In this document: positions 6,949 through 20,032 of the stretch, in pieces
Layout of the letters: each line of letters begins with the position of its first letter
Numbering within the stretch: the first letter of the stretch is position 1
Source of the DNA: a virus
Taxonomy: Duplodnaviria > Heunggongvirae > Uroviricota > Caudoviricetes
Virus record (IMG/VR): IMGVR_UViG_3300045988_165115
Length of the DNA stretch: 39,673 nt
Direction: 5' to 3' (one strand)
The notes under the pieces: model-generated
Told to the model about the DNA's origin: nothing
The model's input: only the letters and a program-made list of their open reading frames with translations
Databases searched by the model: none
Position numbers and translations under genes: made by a program

Positions 6949-8784
6949 TTACCTGCCAAAGCGCGTATAGCCAACATCATGGCTGACATCAAAACCGCTG
7001 GATCGCGTTTCCATAACCCGCATACCCGGAGGCGAATTCACAAAAGAGACCTTGATCTCACCATCAACTTTTGGCGCAGAAGCTTTGTTAATCATGAAGG
7101 GATTCGGGCCTGTGGCATCGGAGGCGTTGTTTGACTGAGCCAGATCTACCGCCGGATAAGGTGTGTATCCCCGCGCCGGTATTCCCGTCCCATAAGCATC
7201 ATAAGCACCCGCGCCCCACTGCGCAGAGTTAATGGCATCGACCGTGTCACCGGAACTGTCGGTAAACCACTCAATAATTGGCTTCAGCTTGTCCCACATA
7301 TCCTGAAACCACTTAACAACCGGCCCCCAGTTATTGATCACCATACCCAGCGGCGACCAGGCAAAAACTTTCTTAAGGAGTTCCCAGCCAGCCTCAAAAT
7401 AAGGACCAATGGTTTCCCAGAGTTTCTTAAAATAAGGTCCGACAACATCCCAGTTAGTGATAATTAATCCCGCAGCCAGGGCTATCGCCGTCGCAATCAT
7501 GCCAATCGGCGTCATCGACATAATCCTGCTGACAATACTGATGGCACCGCCAACGCCCATCAATCCCAGTTTCAGAATCGCAAGACCGGCAGCAAGCCCG
7601 ACGACGCCGCGAATAACCCGGGGATTTTCATCCGCAAACTTCGTGAATTTTTCCCCCAACTCCCCCAGCCACTGCGTGATGTTTTTAGCGTCATCAGAAA
7701 ATGCGCCACCAATAGCCGCAAGGCCGTTAGTTGCGGTCCCCGTCATTGCCTCCCACAGGTTGGACAGCGTACCAAGCTGTGCCTGAACACGTTTATTCAG
7801 GCTGGCCTGTTTATTCATCTTTTGCTGGATCTGATCGTAACCATCCTTTCCTTTATCGATCAGCGCATTGACCACCTGAAGGGTTTCGGCATCATCACCA
7901 AATATTGCCTTAAGTACACCTGTTCGCTTAACGTCGGTCAGTTTTCGCAGCTTTGTCAGTTGCTTAAACATGTTATCAAGACCGCCAAAACTTCCTTTGC
8001 TGTCAGTAAAATCGAGCTGTACCCCGAGTTTCTGGCGGGCCATGACTTTATTGACGTCCCTGATTTTCTTAACGCTTAATCCAGACTGAATAACTTTTCG
8101 CAGGGCATTACCTGCCGACTCCCCGTTCATCCCCATCTGATCCATCATGACGCTGATGGGGGCAAGGCTCTGGGCAGCCTGAAGACCGTCCTTATTCACC
8201 ATCTTCAGAATAGAACTGGTTTTAGTGAAAAAGGACAACATGTTGGTATCGTCAACGCCCAGATAAAACGCCTTCTGAATTGTGTCGAACAGCCCCATCA
8301 TGTCTTCTGATGCCGTTCCGGTAGCATCCTGCATCTTTGCGGCAAACTCAGCAGCCGCTTCCGGTGTTTTTTTCAGTTGTATCGCAAGATAAGCCGTCGC
8401 TTTACCCACACCGCCAAGAATGTTTTCTGCCGGGATCCCCTGACGCACCAGCATCTGCATCATATTCTGAAAATCAGCCGTTGTGCCGGGTAGCTGGTTA
8501 CCCAGGCCAATAGCCAGTTTATTGATGTCCTGAAAGCTCTTTCCGACCTCACCGTTCGCATCCATCATGGCAACTTTCAGCCCGGTGGCGGCGTTTTCCT
8601 GATCGGCATAAGATTTCAGGGAAAGCGTCAGACCCGCTGCCAGCCCGCCACCAAGCGCCAGCCCACCCTGTGACGCTTCTTCCGCCTGACGTTTAAATCC
8701 CCGGATTTTCTTTTGCATTTTCGACAGTGCGGGAGAAAGCCTGTCGACACCGGTGATCAACGCCTTAAGCTCAAATTCAGCCAT
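6949..8784 (-). CDS. tail tape measure protein
   Basis: 611 aa, Ala/Gly-rich with internal hydrophobic segments, located between the chaperone and baseplate genes. Confidence 0.8.
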   Translation of the reverse strand: MAEFELKALITGVDRLSPALSKMQKKIRGFKRQAEEASQGGLALGGGLAAGLTLSLKSYADQENAATGLKVAMMDANGEVGKSFQDINKLAIGLGNQLPGTTADFQNMMQMLVRQGIPAENILGGVGKATAYLAIQLKKTPEAAAEFAAKMQDATGTASEDMMGLFDTIQKAFYLGVDDTNMLSFFTKTSSILKMVNKDGLQAAQSLAPISVMMDQMGMNGESAGNALRKVIQSGLSVKKIRDVNKVMARQKLGVQLDFTDSKGSFGGLDNMFKQLTKLRKLTDVKRTGVLKAIFGDDAETLQVVNALIDKGKDGYDQIQQKMNKQASLNKRVQAQLGTLSNLWEAMTGTATNGLAAIGGAFSDDAKNITQWLGELGEKFTKFADENPRVIRGVVGLAAGLAILKLGLMGVGGAISIVSRIMSMTPIGMIATAIALAAGLIITNWDVVGPYFKKLWETIGPYFEAGWELLKKVFAWSPLGMVINNWGPVVKWFQDMWDKLKPIIEWFTDSSGDTVDAINSAQWGAGAYDAYGTGIPARGYTPYPAVDLAQSNNASDATGPNPFMINKASAPKVDGEIKVSFVNSPPGMRVMETRSSGFDVSHDVGYTRFGR

Positions 8785-8959
8785 GTGTGCGTTTCTCCTG
8801 CTCTATCCTGTTTGCCTGACTGACCAGTAAGGGAATTTCACTGATCGGCATATTCAGCAATTCGAAGGGATTAATGCGCCAGTAGCTGGCGCAGTCAAAG
8901 AAGCGATCAGTGAGGTATTCAGCCGTCAGGCCTGGAGGAAAAAACCGGCCACAAGCCAC
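8777..8959 (-). CDS. tail assembly chaperone -1 frameshift extension (lambda GT-like)
   Basis: Frame -1 relative to the 89-aa ORF; the slippery heptamer lies on the minus strand at plus coordinates 8938-8944; the extension ends where tape measure begins. Confidence 0.5.
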   Translation of the reverse strand: MACGRFFPPGLTAEYLTDRFFDCASYWRINPFELLNMPISEIPLLVSQANRIEQEKRTHG

Positions 8960-9195
8960 GCCGCCGCATTCAGATCTGCGGGAGACATCTGGTCGACAGA
9001 GCTTTGCGGCACTTTCGCCAGCCGCACAATGTATTTCGACACCACATGCGCCAGAAGTCTGACGGACTCATCCTGATTCATCTGGTAGGGATACCCCAGC
9101 TCGCGGACATCCTTCCCGGTGGGCTCATCAAACTCCAGTACGGAGAGTGTCTCGCCATGAGCAGTAATCGATTTCTTTAACTCAAGCTCTTTCAT
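8926..9195 (-). CDS. tail assembly chaperone, upstream frame (lambda G-like)
   Basis: 89 aa between tail tube and tape measure; ends just after a slippery T_TTT_TTC heptamer. Confidence 0.6.
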   Translation of the reverse strand: MKELELKKSITAHGETLSVLEFDEPTGKDVRELGYPYQMNQDESVRLLAHVVSKYIVRLAKVPQSSVDQMSPADLNAAAWLVAGFFLQA

Positions 9196-9551
9196 TACTG
9201 GTAATCCCCTTCTTCACCGTGGAACTCAATATCGACCGTGCCTTCTTCGGCATTATGGTTCGCTTCGCCGTGCAGCCAGGCAGACGACAGTACATAGACC
9301 TGACCGTTCGCCAGCTCGGCAGTGATGGTCATCTCATCAGACGAGGTGATTTTGCTCACCGGAAAATTCTTCGGCACCTTGAAGGTCCCTTTAACATAAG
9401 GCGCACGGTGAGTTTCCTTGCGGTCCACTGAACCATCCAGGCCGATGATGTCATCATTGACCGTCCTGTTCATGGGCACCTCAATGCCGCCGGTCAGCGA
9501 TAGCTGCTGACCGTCAATTTTGAAATAACAGGTTCCCCCGATACGGGCCAT
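9195..9551 (-). CDS. tail tube protein (Mu gpM-like)
   Basis: 118 aa immediately downstream of the sheath gene with a 1-nt overlap. Confidence 0.7.
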   Translation of the reverse strand: MARIGGTCYFKIDGQQLSLTGGIEVPMNRTVNDDIIGLDGSVDRKETHRAPYVKGTFKVPKNFPVSKITSSDEMTITAELANGQVYVLSSAWLHGEANHNAEEGTVDIEFHGEEGDYQ

Positions 9552-11047
9552 TATGCAGACTCCTCTGAATACTGAAGACGGAACTGATTAACCACGGCAA
9601 AGACACGCAACTGGTTAACATAGTCAGGCGGGAACAGCGTATTCAGGCGGTTCGGATCGCTGGCATCACGCTCCACAACCAGGTACTGCTTAAAAAGTTC
9701 GTAGTTTTCCACGATCCCCGCACGCTCAAGCTGACGGTAGGTTGCCAGCAGTTCCCCTTTGATCACCGCCGGGGTGACAATCGCCTGACCGGGACCAAAG
9801 CGGGTACCGTCGCTGGCAAGCTTGTGACGCCCGTACTTACTGGTAATGACGGATTTCAGTTTGCGCAGTACATACGCACTGGTATGCAGCGTCTCGCTGT
9901 CGAGGTAGCTGTTATCCGCAACCCCGTAAGCGTTTTTCCTGTACGTGGTGACATCACGCTGAATGCGCAGCACCCCGCTTTCGACATACGCCGTTGCCAC
10001 GCCATGAGACAGCAGGGTCTGCTGCTCGGTCATCGTGAACCGTTTCCCCTTCGGCGCAGGCAGCATACCCACCAGCTCACCGGTCTGCGTGGGACGTGCA
10101 GGATCGTTGCGAATAAACACCGCTGCGCGGGCGGTACGGCTTGCCGCCAGCTCGTCGGCAGGCGTCTGGGTGTCTTTTTCGTACCCCGCCAGGGTAATGT
10201 GCTGCTGGTTAAACTGGTCACCTGCGGTCACCAGTTCTGACAGCGTGCCGATCTTTGCCGTATACACATGACCATACAGCTGACGCGCATAGCTCCAGCG
10301 ACCGCTGGTATCGTTCATCTCGGTCACCAGCGTGTTAACGGAGCCCGTGTCGTTGAACGGCAGGCCGATATAATCAAACGGCTCATCCGCCATTGCAGCC
10401 ACCGCGCCGGTGAGAACCGGAGCGCCCGTTCCGGCGGTCCCCGTCGCCACGGCAATCTGTACGCCCGCTGGCAGCACTTCGCCCCCACCAAAGCCGTAGT
10501 AATTGAGGCTGACAGGAATTTCATTCCCGCAAAGCCCCTTATGACGCGCGGTCAGTGTGACCACGCCAGCCGAAGATGAGGCCGTAAACGGCAGGGCCGG
10601 AACGGCATTGATGGCATCCTGGATACTGCTGGCAATCGTCGCGACGTTATCGCCGTTGGTCACCGATGCCTGCACGCGGGTACGTCCCACATAAACATTC
10701 ACCGTGCCGGTTTCGGTTGCCGCCCCGGTCACCGTCAGCGTAACCGTTGCCGCCGCGCCTGTGGCTTCCGGAACGGCAATCACATACAGCTCGCCAAACG
10801 GGTCAGTCTGGCGATAAGCCTCGACCATACGCGCCAGCTGACTTCCCGCACCACAAATCTGGCGTGCATAGTCTGCCGACGGCATCAGCACCAGACTGTT
10901 GGCAACAATCTCTGTACCGTTATTGGCGTGACCAATCAGCAACGATGCCCCGCTGTCCTGTGCAGTATTCGCCGCCTGGTTATCCATTTCCGCATAAAAC
11001 AGCGGAACCAGCGTATTCGACGGAATGGTGTTAAAGCTTATCGTCAT
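9551..11047 (-). CDS. contractile tail sheath protein (Mu gpL-like)
   Basis: 498 aa; size, Thr/Ala/Gly-rich composition and position upstream of the tube gene. Confidence 0.8.
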   Translation of the reverse strand: MTISFNTIPSNTLVPLFYAEMDNQAANTAQDSGASLLIGHANNGTEIVANSLVLMPSADYARQICGAGSQLARMVEAYRQTDPFGELYVIAVPEATGAAATVTLTVTGAATETGTVNVYVGRTRVQASVTNGDNVATIASSIQDAINAVPALPFTASSSAGVVTLTARHKGLCGNEIPVSLNYYGFGGGEVLPAGVQIAVATGTAGTGAPVLTGAVAAMADEPFDYIGLPFNDTGSVNTLVTEMNDTSGRWSYARQLYGHVYTAKIGTLSELVTAGDQFNQQHITLAGYEKDTQTPADELAASRTARAAVFIRNDPARPTQTGELVGMLPAPKGKRFTMTEQQTLLSHGVATAYVESGVLRIQRDVTTYRKNAYGVADNSYLDSETLHTSAYVLRKLKSVITSKYGRHKLASDGTRFGPGQAIVTPAVIKGELLATYRQLERAGIVENYELFKQYLVVERDASDPNRLNTLFPPDYVNQLRVFAVVNQFRLQYSEESA

Positions 11048-19738: not shown

Positions 19739-20032
19739 ATGAAAAAAATGTTGTTTTCTGCCGCTCTGGCAATGCTTATTACAGGATGTGCTCAACAGAC
19801 GTTTACTGTTGGAAACAAACCTACAGCAGTAACACCAAAGGAAACCATCACCCATCATTTCTTCGTTTCGGGAATTGGACAGCAGAAAACTGTTGATGCA
19901 GCCAAAATTTGTGGCGGCGCAGAAAATGTTGTTAAAACAGAAACCCAGCAAACATTCGTAAATGGATTGCTCGGTTTTATTACTTTAGGCATTTATACTC
20001 CGCTGGAAGCGCGTGTGTATTGCTCACAATAA
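19739..20032 (+). CDS. bor: Bor lipoprotein (serum-resistance factor)
   Basis: Translation MKKMLFSAALAMLITGCAQQTFTV... is nearly identical to lambda Bor as recalled; lipobox LITGC; AGGA Shine-Dalgarno 7 nt upstream; opposite to the lysis genes as in lambda. Confidence 0.9.
   Translation: MKKMLFSAALAMLITGCAQQTFTVGNKPTAVTPKETITHHFFVSGIGQQKTVDAAKICGGAENVVKTETQQTFVNGLLGFITLGIYTPLEARVYCSQ

Follow-up and report, generated by a model that had tools for sequence, protein, structure and literature searches.

A predicted programmed -1 frameshift of the P2 E/E+E' kind in the gene encoding the tail assembly chaperone in an SfV-like prophage

RESULTS

Gene order of the tail module

The window, i.e., the whole stretch of 39,673 nucleotides that was analyzed (IMG/VR record IMGVR_UViG_3300045988_165115), contains a tail module in which the neighborhood of the chaperone gene is encoded entirely on the minus strand, in the order sheath, tube, 89-amino-acid (aa) chaperone open reading frame (ORF), and tape measure. 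The features considered here are the following.

9551..11047, minus strand: tail sheath protein, 498 aa (PF04984, PF17482, and PF17481)
9195..9551, minus strand: tail tube protein, 118 aa, directly upstream of the chaperone (PF10618, E = 6e-33; phrog_185)
8926..9195, minus strand: zero-frame tail assembly chaperone ORF, 89 aa (ATG 9195-9193, stop TGA 8928-8926)
8938..8944, minus strand: putative slippery heptamer T_TTT_TTC (mRNA U_UUU_UUC), P-site codon 85 TTT and A-site codon 86 TTC
8777..8938, minus strand: -1 frame extension, 53 codons plus stop, sequence PPGLTAEYLTDRFFDCASYWRINPFELLNMPISEIPLLVSQANRIEQEKRTHG followed by the stop; base 8938 would be read twice
8777..9195, minus strand: predicted whole recoded gene, join(9195..8938, 8938..8777), 139-aa fusion
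8875..8893, minus strand: hairpin UGCGCCAG-CUA-CUGGCGCA within the extension and 45 nt 3' of the heptamer
6949..8784, minus strand: tail tape measure protein, 611 aa (PF10145, E = 9e-26; phrog_28 and others)

The chaperone ATG and the stop codon of the tube gene share bases (TAATG). The start of the tape measure gene (ATGGCTGA, ATG 8784-8782) is overlapped by the stop codon of the -1 frame (TGA 8779-8777), and its Shine-Dalgarno sequence AGGAG (8799-8795) lies within the extension. The presence of a sheath gene indicates that this tail module is contractile and of the Mu/SfV type, and it shares 98% DNA identity with orf11-14 of phage SfV. The element that harbors the chaperone gene is an SfV-like prophage; the window is collinear with and nearly identical to Escherichia coli EC28 only up to approximately 20.3 kb, and the EC28 annotation served as a map for this part alone.

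Reading frames at the end of the chaperone ORF

A first-pass annotation of this DNA had stated that the 89-aa ORF ends soon after a minus-strand T_TTT_TTC heptamer and that a -1 frame ORF continues to the start of the tape measure gene, and both statements agree with the sequence. The zero frame ends with GCC GGT TTT TTC CTC CAG GCC TGA. Direct inspection showed that the heptamer at 8944-8938 sits in X_XXY_YYZ phase, with 9 nt between the end of the A-site codon and the zero-frame stop. Beginning 123 nt 5' of the heptamer, the -1 frame stays open as far as its stop codon, which overlaps the tape measure start; by contrast, the +1 frame closes within 7 nt. The -1 ORF occupies a 141-nt gap that is otherwise devoid of annotation. 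A shift at this site would generate a fusion of 139 aa with the predicted junction peptide ...AAWLVAGFFPPGLTAEYLTDR; the corresponding fusions of 13 relatives measure 136 to 150 aa.

T_TTT_TTC is the sole in-phase heptamer of the 89-aa ORF, and the in-phase tetramers in the overlap all belong to it. However, in-phase X_XXY_YYZ heptamers are frequent: the window's ORFs with 80 or more aa contain 77 of them, corresponding to approximately 1 per 230 codons, and in 7 of these 77 cases the -1 frame continues for more than 60 nt beyond the stop, mostly in spurious antisense ORFs. The sequence TTTTTTY occurs 42 times in the whole window. Judged by the window sequence by itself, the slip site is no more than chance. 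It rises above chance by its location, which is between the tube gene and the tape measure gene, and by its conservation in 83 of 83 relatives, as detailed below. The sequence U_UU.U_UU.C is proven to be shifty in E. coli, where it exceeds 0.1% even when no stimulator is present, and it is a member of the efficient class H_HH.U_UU.Y (PMC4066793).

Family assignment of the chaperone

The 89-aa ORF matches the Pfam family PF10109 (Phage_TAC_7) with an E value of 3.1e-14 and a score of 53.2 bits (cutoff, 25); the match comprises residues 4 to 86 and covers profile positions 2 to 78 of 79. The same model scores 47.8 bits on P2 E+E'. The ORF also belongs to phrog_166 ("tail protein"), and its PGAP name is "phage tail assembly protein." When the 139-aa fusion was scanned against Pfam (E ≤ 0.01), PF10109 was the only match, and no family of lambda gpG or gpT, which we take to be Phage_TAC_2 and Phage_tail_T, was detected. 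By sequence, the chaperone is thus assigned to the P2 gpE/Mu gp41 family and not to that of lambda gpG/gpT. The first-pass annotation had termed the gene a G/GT-type chaperone; this term is appropriate as an analogy of mechanism and position but does not hold as a statement of sequence membership.

Other resources added little. Neither the window fusion nor P2 E+E' is matched by an NCBIfam model, and a sequence search of the Protein Data Bank with the fusion retrieved spurious matches to light-harvesting proteins alone (E ≥ 0.001). An alignment-free structure prediction of the fusion had a mean pLDDT of 45.9 and a pTM of 0.31, values that are insufficient for searching by fold.

Conservation of the slip site among relatives

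Conservation was assessed in 83 distinct relatives, which belong to Enterobacterales, Pseudomonas, and Burkholderia or are phages; the material comprised 9 phages, whose chaperones are 39 to 77% identical, and 78 distinct genome loci. A scan of viral contigs with the window chaperone retrieved relatives that are 99 to 100% identical, which were used solely for checks of close variants, and a scan with P2 gpE likewise gave only relatives at 99 to 100% identity.

A number of observations can be made from these sequences. (i) T_TTT_TT(C/T/G) is present at the homologous codon and in phase in all 83 relatives, whereas the position of the zero-frame stop varies (9, 18, 27, 30, 48, or 63 nt past the heptamer). 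Each of the 83 also has a -1 frame that reaches approximately to the tape measure start and encodes a conserved peptide. (ii) In the 78 genome loci, the -1 frame extends 128 to 149 nt beyond the zero-frame stop and, in nearly all of them, ends within a few nucleotides of the tape measure start; the single outlier is an artifact of the crude start-finder. The +1 frame is mostly closed after 16 nt. (iii) The codon 5' of TTT is GGT in 39 cases, AGT in 38, CGT in 4, and AAT and CCT in 1 each. Its final base is always T although the encoded residue varies among G, S, R, N, and P, and the Ala codon preceding it is found with all four third bases. (iv) In the flanking genes of the Pseudomonas loci, TTT accounts for 26% of the Phe codons, AGT for 12% of the Ser codons, and GGT for 21% of the Gly codons. 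The invariant heptamer goes against this local codon usage and is under constraint at the nucleotide level. (v) When P2 gpE was aligned with 9 relatives, the Phe residue at the slip site was one of four invariant columns. (vi) As a point against a frameshift, 3 of 80 near-identical prophage loci have GGG in place of GGT before the Phe codons and hence lack the canonical first base.

The -1 frame extension

The extension corresponds to phrog_32181 (E = 4e-40). Among relatives, substitutions at positions 1, 2, and 3 of the -1 frame codons number 85, 49, and 195, respectively, and an alignment shows that the peptide motif of the extension is kept across clades. This pattern indicates that the -1 frame is protein coding and under purifying selection. 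A profile search with the extension domain retrieved 71 proteins of 31 to 104 aa, none of which contains a Pfam domain. This search gave no unsplit, single-ORF fusion of about 140 aa, so the split appears to be ancestral.

The relationship of the extension to its P2 counterpart is less evident. PF06528 (Phage_P2_GpE), which matches P2 E+E' with an E value of 1.2e-21, matched neither the window extension nor three diverged homologues at E ≤ 10. An hhalign comparison of a profile of 12 extensions with P2 E' resulted in a weak match (E = 0.0016; probability, 16%) over 41 collinear columns, and homology of the extension to P2 E' is possible. Searched alone against Pfam at E ≤ 10, the extension retrieved nothing relevant, the lambda gpT family included.

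Stimulatory elements and RNA structure

The first-pass annotation had suggested a search for a downstream stem-loop or pseudoknot, and no such structure, as is typical of frameshift signals of the IS3/IS911 and dnaX type, was found at the canonical spacing of 5 to 9 nt past the heptamer. In 18 of 18 sequences, folding of the first 45 nt downstream does not surpass that of shuffled sequences (z scores of -1.85 to +0.68), and these 18 sequences share no structure in this segment; the 96 nt centered on the heptamer fold with a z score of +0.81. Furthermore, GGCGGCGTGGCTTGTGGCCGG contains no GGAGG-like element 6 to 17 nt upstream of the heptamer. Both a classical downstream stimulator and an upstream Shine-Dalgarno-like stimulator were consequently rejected, as they are absent by folding and by sequence. 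A scan of 8500-9400 against Rfam gave no family match, and its single subthreshold match, to a CRISPR repeat, is attributed to chance. Because there is no stimulator at the canonical distance, the efficiency of frameshifting may be low.

Separate observations concern the RNA of the extension itself. In 17 relatives from several clades, the 100 nt past the heptamer fold far better than shuffled sequences, with a mean z score of -2.2; five controls taken at the same loci from the adjoining coding sequences for the chaperone, tube, and tape measure had means of -0.0 to -0.8. The 8-bp hairpin at 8893-8875 is invariant in 15 distinct sequences, with nucleotide conservation confined to the enterobacterial clade, and invariant third-codon positions amount to 5 of 5 in its stem versus 3 of 40 elsewhere in the extension. 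RNAalifold paired UUUUUCCU at the slip site with AGGAGAAA in the tape measure gene, with no compensatory changes, and covariation supporting an RNA structure in the extension was not observed. The possibility that the hairpin palindrome is a repeated DNA site was rejected, since it is unique in the window.

It is conceivable, although we regard it as rather doubtful, that the 141-nt stretch translated by frameshifted ribosomes alone carries a functional RNA structure, of which the hairpin may be a part. Such a structure, if real, may (i) tune frameshifting from an unusually long distance of 45 nt, (ii) sustain expression of the tape measure gene by protecting, against Rho or RNases, a segment of the operon that is almost free of ribosomes, or (iii) gate the ribosome binding site of the tape measure gene.

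Predicted synthesis of two proteins from one start

The proposal of the first-pass annotation that this is one gene with two products, made by a programmed -1 frameshift, is supported by the gene order, the PF10109 match, the phase of the heptamer, the P2-like layout, and the conservation in 83 of 83 relatives. We consider it very probable that the 89-aa chaperone and the 139-aa fusion arise by programmed -1 ribosomal frameshifting, as in P2 E/E+E'. Because a slippery site and a -1 extension like those of P2 E/E+E' are present, it is almost certain that two proteins are made from one start.

The majority of ribosomes translating the tail operon would remain in frame and terminate at UGA 8928-8926, releasing the 89-aa chaperone. 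In a minority, tRNA-Phe on UUU in the P site (codon 85) and tRNA-Phe on UUC in the A site (codon 86) would slip one base back on U_UUU_UUC and re-pair with UUU UUU, and decoding in the -1 frame would resume at CCU. These ribosomes would add 53 residues and end at UGA 8779-8777 atop the tape measure AUG, thereby producing a 139-aa fusion with the same N terminus as the short product. A frameshift efficiency of a few percent is expected. By extrapolation from lambda gpG/gpGT, the common N-terminal domain would coat the tape measure protein, which is the expected client of the chaperone, and the rare C-terminal extension would recruit the tail tube protein, its partner by analogy, so that the tube polymerizes around the tape measure; both the chaperone and the fusion would be absent from the virion. 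In the literature, we found no proteomic or reporter data on the fusion in SfV-type phages.

Three other explanations were weighed. The one that fares best is that RNA polymerase adds one U at the T6 run (8944-8939) in some transcripts, which would yield the same 139-aa fusion. The conserved element is a homopolymer, with 6 T in 79 and 7 T in 4 of the 83 relatives, and insertion of one U causes the same frame change; the conservation data are compatible with either mechanism, and sequence alone cannot separate the two. However, a run of 6 T is short, since efficient slippage of bacterial RNA polymerase generally needs about 8 to 9 or more A or T. The run also always begins at the third base of a codon, which fits tandem tRNA slippage, although this argument is weak, as the conserved Phe-Phe/Leu residues constrain this phase as well. 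The sequences UUUUUUU and AAAAAAA have been noted as indel prone in mRNA through transcriptional slippage (PMC4066793), whereas for the homologous site of P2 both the annotation and the literature (PMC3091744) give translational frameshifting. We regard transcriptional slippage as improbable and infer that the shift is ribosomal.

According to the second explanation, there are two separate genes, and the 60-codon ORF at 8959-8777 yields a small protein of its own through initiation at GTG 8959 or at an internal start, with no recoding. This is how gene callers list it: the ORF is a separate coding sequence in phage vB_EcoM-689R6, a 60-aa "hypothetical protein" on approximately 1,000 contigs, and a PHROG family of its own (phrog_32181). 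The first-pass annotation had named an efficient initiation site of the downstream ORF as evidence against its proposal, and GTG 8959 proved to be the sole upstream in-frame start of the -1 frame in the window. It is not conserved, and the sequence that precedes it, GAATGCGGCGGC, contains no Shine-Dalgarno motif. When the -1 frame was scanned from the last upstream stop to 10 codons past the heptamer, 51 of the 83 sequences contained no ATG, GTG, or TTG, and the domain is nonetheless conserved in them. The extension consequently appears to have no independent start. Moreover, two separate genes would leave the invariance of the heptamer, against local codon usage, without explanation, and we assign this reading a very slight chance.

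Equally implausible is that a frameshift mutation in a defective prophage, or a coincidental heptamer with an open frame, has left only the 89-aa protein of relevance: although 7 in-phase heptamers with open -1 frames occur by chance in the window and a few close relatives have changes in the T run, the same split is found at the same codon in 83 of 83 distinct sequences, viable phages such as SfV, SfI, SfII, AH07, and EPP-1, as well as P2, have it, the -1 frame shows the signature of purifying selection, and no unsplit version was found.

DISCUSSION

Occurrence and annotation

Among 5,426 complete E. coli genomes, approximately 1,100 contain a prophage of this type. The type is also represented by the serotype-converting Shigella phages SfV, SfI, SfII, and SfIV and by SfV-like tail clusters found in Pseudomonas; these clusters have been interpreted in published work as pyocin-like bacteriocins. 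In each of the records inspected, the short product alone is annotated, and the extension is either blank or a "hypothetical protein"; a collection of 15 billion proteins does not contain the 139-aa fusion, and the extension domain has no family of its own in Pfam. The value of the present analysis is therefore mainly one of annotation: with join(9195..8938, 8938..8777), these genomes would gain a tail assembly protein that is probably essential. In addition, the slip site would have to be kept when these tails or tailocins are engineered.

Comparison with known systems

Phage Mu has the tail module closest to the SfV type in gene order, namely, L (sheath), M (tube), gp41, and gp42 (tape measure). 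Mu gp41 (Mup41) is named in the description of PF10109 and is a tail assembly chaperone in RefSeq; in a tblastn search with the window protein, Mu was not found at E ≤ 1e-3. Unlike the window chaperone, Mu gp41 has 144 aa and no in-phase -1 heptamer, and in Mu it is the +1 frame and not the -1 frame that remains open until 14 nt short of the start of the tape measure gene.

The lambda gpG/gpGT genes share with the window gene the position in the operon and the strategy, i.e., two products with a common N terminus that depend on a -1 shift occurring at a low level close to the end of the chaperone ORF. By position and mechanism, lambda gpG is the counterpart of the 89-aa ORF and lambda T that of the extension. 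The system was reportedly worked out by Levin in 1993 and by Xu, Hendrix, and Duda in 2004, 2013, and 2014. However, there is no detectable sequence relationship between these genes and the window gene, the lambda tail is noncontractile whereas the window module is contractile, and the lambda heptamer, G_GGA_AAG, is different. In the functional model for lambda, the tape measure protein is bound by the common domain and the tube protein by the extension, with a ratio of approximately 30:1 (PMC5009743).

The closest match is E/E+E' of the P2 FETUD tail operon, the -1 frameshift of which is described in PMC3091744 (citing Christie 2002 and Xu 2004) and annotated for E+E' in the RefSeq record NC_001895. 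The differences are that (i) the last base of the heptamer is C in the window (T_TTT_TTC) and G in P2 (T_TTT_TTG), (ii) the N-terminal domains of the window chaperone and P2 gpE are only 17% identical, (iii) the window extension, unlike P2 E', has no PF06528 match, and (iv) the P2 frameshift is described in the literature, whereas that of the window is predicted from sequence. In both cases, a PF10109 protein is encoded between the tube and tape measure genes of a contractile tail, and the chaperones (89 aa in the window and 91 aa in P2) and fusions (139 and 142 aa, respectively) are of similar size. The slip site, a T6 run in both, lies at the same aligned codon (85 in the window and 84 in P2), the -1 frame terminates 8 nt beyond the ATG of the tape measure gene in either case, and an immediate downstream stimulatory structure is absent in the window and, according to PMC3091744, in P2 and its relatives as well. 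The window gene thus represents a known and well-described phage device that opens no new question and confirms once again the stability of the chaperone frameshift.

An in-phase heptamer and an open -1 frame in the chaperone gene

The DNA around the tail assembly chaperone gene shares 98% identity with the Shigella phages SfV, SfI, and SfII and with the E. coli phages vB_EcoM-689R6 and SKA5. Identity to the chaperone region of the window is 100% in prophages of several completely sequenced E. coli genomes, and a match is present in approximately 1,100 of 5,426 complete E. coli genomes. The tail genes concerned are as follows.

11047-9551 (-), sheath, 498 aa; PF04984, PF17482, and PF17481
9551-9195 (-), tube, 118 aa; PF10618
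9195-8926 (-), chaperone ORF, 89 aa; PF10109
8925-8785 (-), unannotated gap, 141 nt
8784-6949 (-), tape measure, 611 aa; PF10145

On the minus strand, the 3' end of the 89-aa ORF reads ...GCC GGT TTT TTC CTC CAG GCC TGA. The heptamer T_TTT_TTC (8944-8938) is in X_XXY_YYZ phase, with TTT as codon 85 and TTC as codon 86, and the zero-frame stop is the TGA at 8928-8926. The first codon following a -1 slip is CCT, and 53 codons are open up to the TGA at 8779-8777, which falls within ATGGCTGA, where the tape measure gene begins (ATG 8784-8782). The resulting fusion of chaperone and extension, as we term the -1 frame peptide, has 139 aa; the +1 frame is closed almost immediately. The first-pass annotation had described this ORF, its heptamer, and a -1 ORF continuing to the tape measure start, and its description and coordinates were correct throughout. 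Taken alone, a heptamer with an open -1 frame is unremarkable. In-phase heptamers number 77 in the window's ORFs of 80 aa or more; 7 of them have a -1 frame extending more than 60 nt beyond the stop (mostly in spurious antisense ORFs). TTTTTTY occurs 42 times in the window. The case depends on the context and on the relatives.

As to its type, the window represents a lambdoid prophage whose tail is of the SfV/Mu type. The counterpart prophage of E. coli EC28, which adjoins icd, is identical to the window only as far as approximately 20.3 kb. The window also codes for an Iss/Bor-like lipoprotein (19739-20032, +) and carries two convergent sets of tail fiber and fiber assembly genes (30-855, +, and 827-1887, -). 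These sets (30-1887) look like an invertible host range segment; a search within the window gave no strong inverted repeats.

Conservation of the slip site

Nine phages with chaperones 39 to 77% identical to that of the window were compared, namely, Pantoea AH07, Edwardsiella EPP-1, Burkholderia BgVeeders33, Pseudomonas DVM-2008 and PG1, SfIV, ST64B, phiP27, and SfV. A further 78 distinct loci, mainly from Pseudomonas and also from Enterobacterales and Burkholderia, came from a scan in which each species was represented by one genome. In all 83 distinct sequences from phages and genome loci, the T run is in phase at the homologous codon (T6 in 79 and T7 in 4), and the A-site codon is TTC in 77, TTT in 4, and TTG in 2. 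The zero-frame stop shifts, lying 9, 18, 27, 30, 48, or 63 nt past a heptamer of constant position. The -1 frame of the 78 genome loci reaches 128 to 149 nt beyond this stop, and in nearly all of them its end is no more than a few nucleotides from the tape measure start, the one outlier being an artifact of the crude start finder; the +1 frame in relatives usually closes after 16 nt.

The codon preceding the first Phe ends in T in 83 of 83 sequences (GGT, 39; AGT, 38; CGT, 4; AAT, 1; CCT, 1), while the amino acid may be G, S, R, N, or P, and all four third bases are in use at the Ala codon two before the first TTT. In the flanking genes of the Pseudomonas loci, the share of TTT among Phe codons is 26%, that of AGT among Ser codons 12%, and that of GGT among Gly codons 21%. 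The slip site is thus maintained against codon preference. Variants are found in the prophage loci L025, L056, and L062 (3 of 80 near-identical IMG/VR prophage loci, ~1750-1760), where GGG replaces GGT so that they read GGG TTT TTC or GGG TTT TTT, with the canonical first heptamer base replaced by G. In addition, three E. coli genomes encode a 63-aa protein (P0023; MQRRGLWPVFPPGLT...) that implies a T5 run. These GGG and T5 variants may reflect prophage decay, homopolymer sequencing errors, or reliance on A-site-only slippage.

Proposed mechanism of fusion

The sequence U_UU.U_UU.C is a member of the efficient H_HH.U_UU.Y class and, unaided by a stimulator, gives more than 0.1% shift in E. coli (PMC4066793). 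Tandem -1 slippage of tRNA-Phe on U_UUU_UUC is the best explanation of the gene: both tRNAs would slip together, yielding a minority 139-aa fusion next to the 89-aa chaperone. Slippage during transcription of the T6 run would lead to an identical product and fits the sequence equally; we rate its probability as low, because a run of six T is short for slippage by bacterial RNA polymerase.

Two further alternatives concern the -1 frame itself. Substitutions at codon positions 1, 2, and 3 of this frame amount to 85, 49, and 195, respectively, in the non-overlapping part of the extension (11 enterobacterial relatives), and those in the chaperone of enterobacterial relatives to 149, 86, and 449. 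The extension peptide keeps the motif L..[FY][DEN].A.[FY][WF][RK]..P ... A.RI across clades. A start of its own for the downstream ORF, which the first-pass annotation had named as part of what would speak against frameshifting, was sought. In the window, GTG 8959 is preceded by GAATGCGGCGGC, and no Shine-Dalgarno sequence is present there; in 51 of the 83 sequences, the -1 frame contains no ATG, GTG, or TTG from the last upstream stop to ten codons beyond the heptamer. Judged from these sequence patterns, the -1 frame is protein-coding and has no start of its own. Independent initiation of the extension ORF is contradicted by the comparative data, and so is an origin of the open frame by decay or chance. 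Run against 5.8 billion protein clusters, the extension profile matched 71 proteins of 31 to 104 aa, none with a Pfam domain; no single ORF of approximately 140 aa was among them, indicating that the split arrangement is the conserved state.

RNA structure

A downstream stem-loop or pseudoknot, for which the first-pass annotation had suggested a search, was not found in the first 45 nt 3' of the heptamer: in 18 of 18 sequences this segment folded no better than shuffles (z from -1.85 to +0.68), and no structure was common to them. The 96 nt centered on the heptamer gave a z of +0.81, no Shine-Dalgarno-like element was detected upstream of the slip site, and no Rfam family matched.

The extension RNA is structured to an unusual degree. 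The 100 nt 3' of the heptamer, which are read only by ribosomes that have shifted frame, have a folding energy of -32 kcal/mol (z = -3.4) in the window (8838-8937, -). Over 17 relatives the mean z is -2.2; five control windows placed in the chaperone, tube, and tape measure coding regions of these loci gave means of -0.0 to -0.8. The SfIV/ST64B/phiP27 clade departs from this pattern (z of approximately 0), and the positions of the structures differ between clades. In the window, an 8-bp hairpin, UGCGCCAG-CUA-CUGGCGCA (8893-8875, -), lies inside the extension; its sequence occurs only once in the window. As UGCGCCAG-NUA-CUGGCGCA, it is invariant except for the first loop base in 15 distinct enterobacterial sequences, which show no covariation because nothing varies. 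In the stem, 5 of 5 third codon positions are invariant; for the remainder of the extension, the figure is 3 of 40 (Fisher P = 5e-5, although one of the five belongs to a Trp codon and the columns lack independence). Neighboring third positions vary. The hairpin is absent from the homologous place in the Pseudomonas and SfIV clades and, starting 45 nt 3' of the heptamer, is too distant for a classical stimulator. RNAalifold also paired UUUUUCCU at the slip site (8936-8943, -) with AGGAGAAA (8792-8799, -), which lies 137 nt 3' of the slip site and forms the tape measure gene's Shine-Dalgarno region. Changes are one-sided only (U-A to U-G) and compensatory pairs are lacking; this pairing may thus be mere pyrimidine-purine complementarity.

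State of annotation

No joined two-ORF annotation was present among the GenBank/RefSeq records inspected (SfV, SfIV, ST64B, phiP27, AH07, EPP-1, BgVeeders33, DVM-2008, PG1, and PGAP-annotated E. coli genomes), and the exact 139-aa fusion is absent from 15 billion proteins. The 89-aa protein is found on at least 1000 contigs as "phage tail assembly protein." PGAP leaves the 141-nt stretch 8785-8925 without annotation in E. coli genomes, and other pipelines name a 60-aa -1 ORF "hypothetical protein" on approximately 1000 contigs. Some extension-only fragments at contig ends (P0059, P0064, P0086, and P0094) are titled "phage tail assembly protein, partial," and in one protein entry of Shigella flexneri K-1770 (P0096), the zero frame passes into the extension at a different point.

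Comparison with P2, lambda, and Mu

The 89-aa protein exceeds the gathering score of PF10109 ("Phage tail assembly chaperone proteins, E, or 41 or 14"; 53.2 versus 25 bits). P2 E+E' matches the same family and, through its extension, PF06528. The sole match of the window extension is phrog_32181, a PHROG family of unknown function; no Pfam family matched even at E<=10, and a profile of 12 extensions aligned with P2 E' collinearly but weakly (hhalign E = 0.0016, probability 16%). Homology is thus established for the N-terminal domains of the window chaperone and P2 gpE and only plausible for the extensions.

In P2, the 91-aa E and the 142-aa E+E' share one start, with a -1 shift at TTTTTTG (PMC3091744), and RefSeq lists the CDS of E+E' as a join, marked with a "site of -1 translational frameshift." Features computed for both with one script are closely alike: P2 and the window have, respectively, zero-frame products of 91 and 89 aa, heptamers T_TTT_TTG and T_TTT_TTC, P-site codons 84 and 85, and fusions of 142 and 139 aa, and in both the -1 stop ends at +8 nt relative to the tape measure ATG. 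The slip-site Phe is one of only four invariant columns in P2 gpE aligned with nine relatives. As at the window's slip site, no downstream structure was found in P2 (PMC3091744). In lambda, the ratio of gpG to gpGT is approximately 30:1 (PMC5009743). By analogy with this pair, we infer that the domain shared by chaperone and fusion would bind the tape measure protein and that the extension would recruit the tube protein.

Phage Mu gp41 (L093; NC_000929, 3553-4131) is a 144-aa tail assembly chaperone at the same gene position. Unlike the window gene, it lacks an in-phase -1 heptamer. The -1 frame of gp41 closes early, and the +1 frame stays open between a point 35 nt upstream of the stop and one 14 nt short of the tape measure start; recoding there, if any, would go in a different direction. 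The programmed -1 frameshift put forward by the first-pass annotation is supported by the P2-like layout and by the heptamer in 83 of 83 distinct sequences, and the data support the window gene as an ordinary, though unannotated, case of a tail chaperone frameshift of the P2 E/E+E' class.
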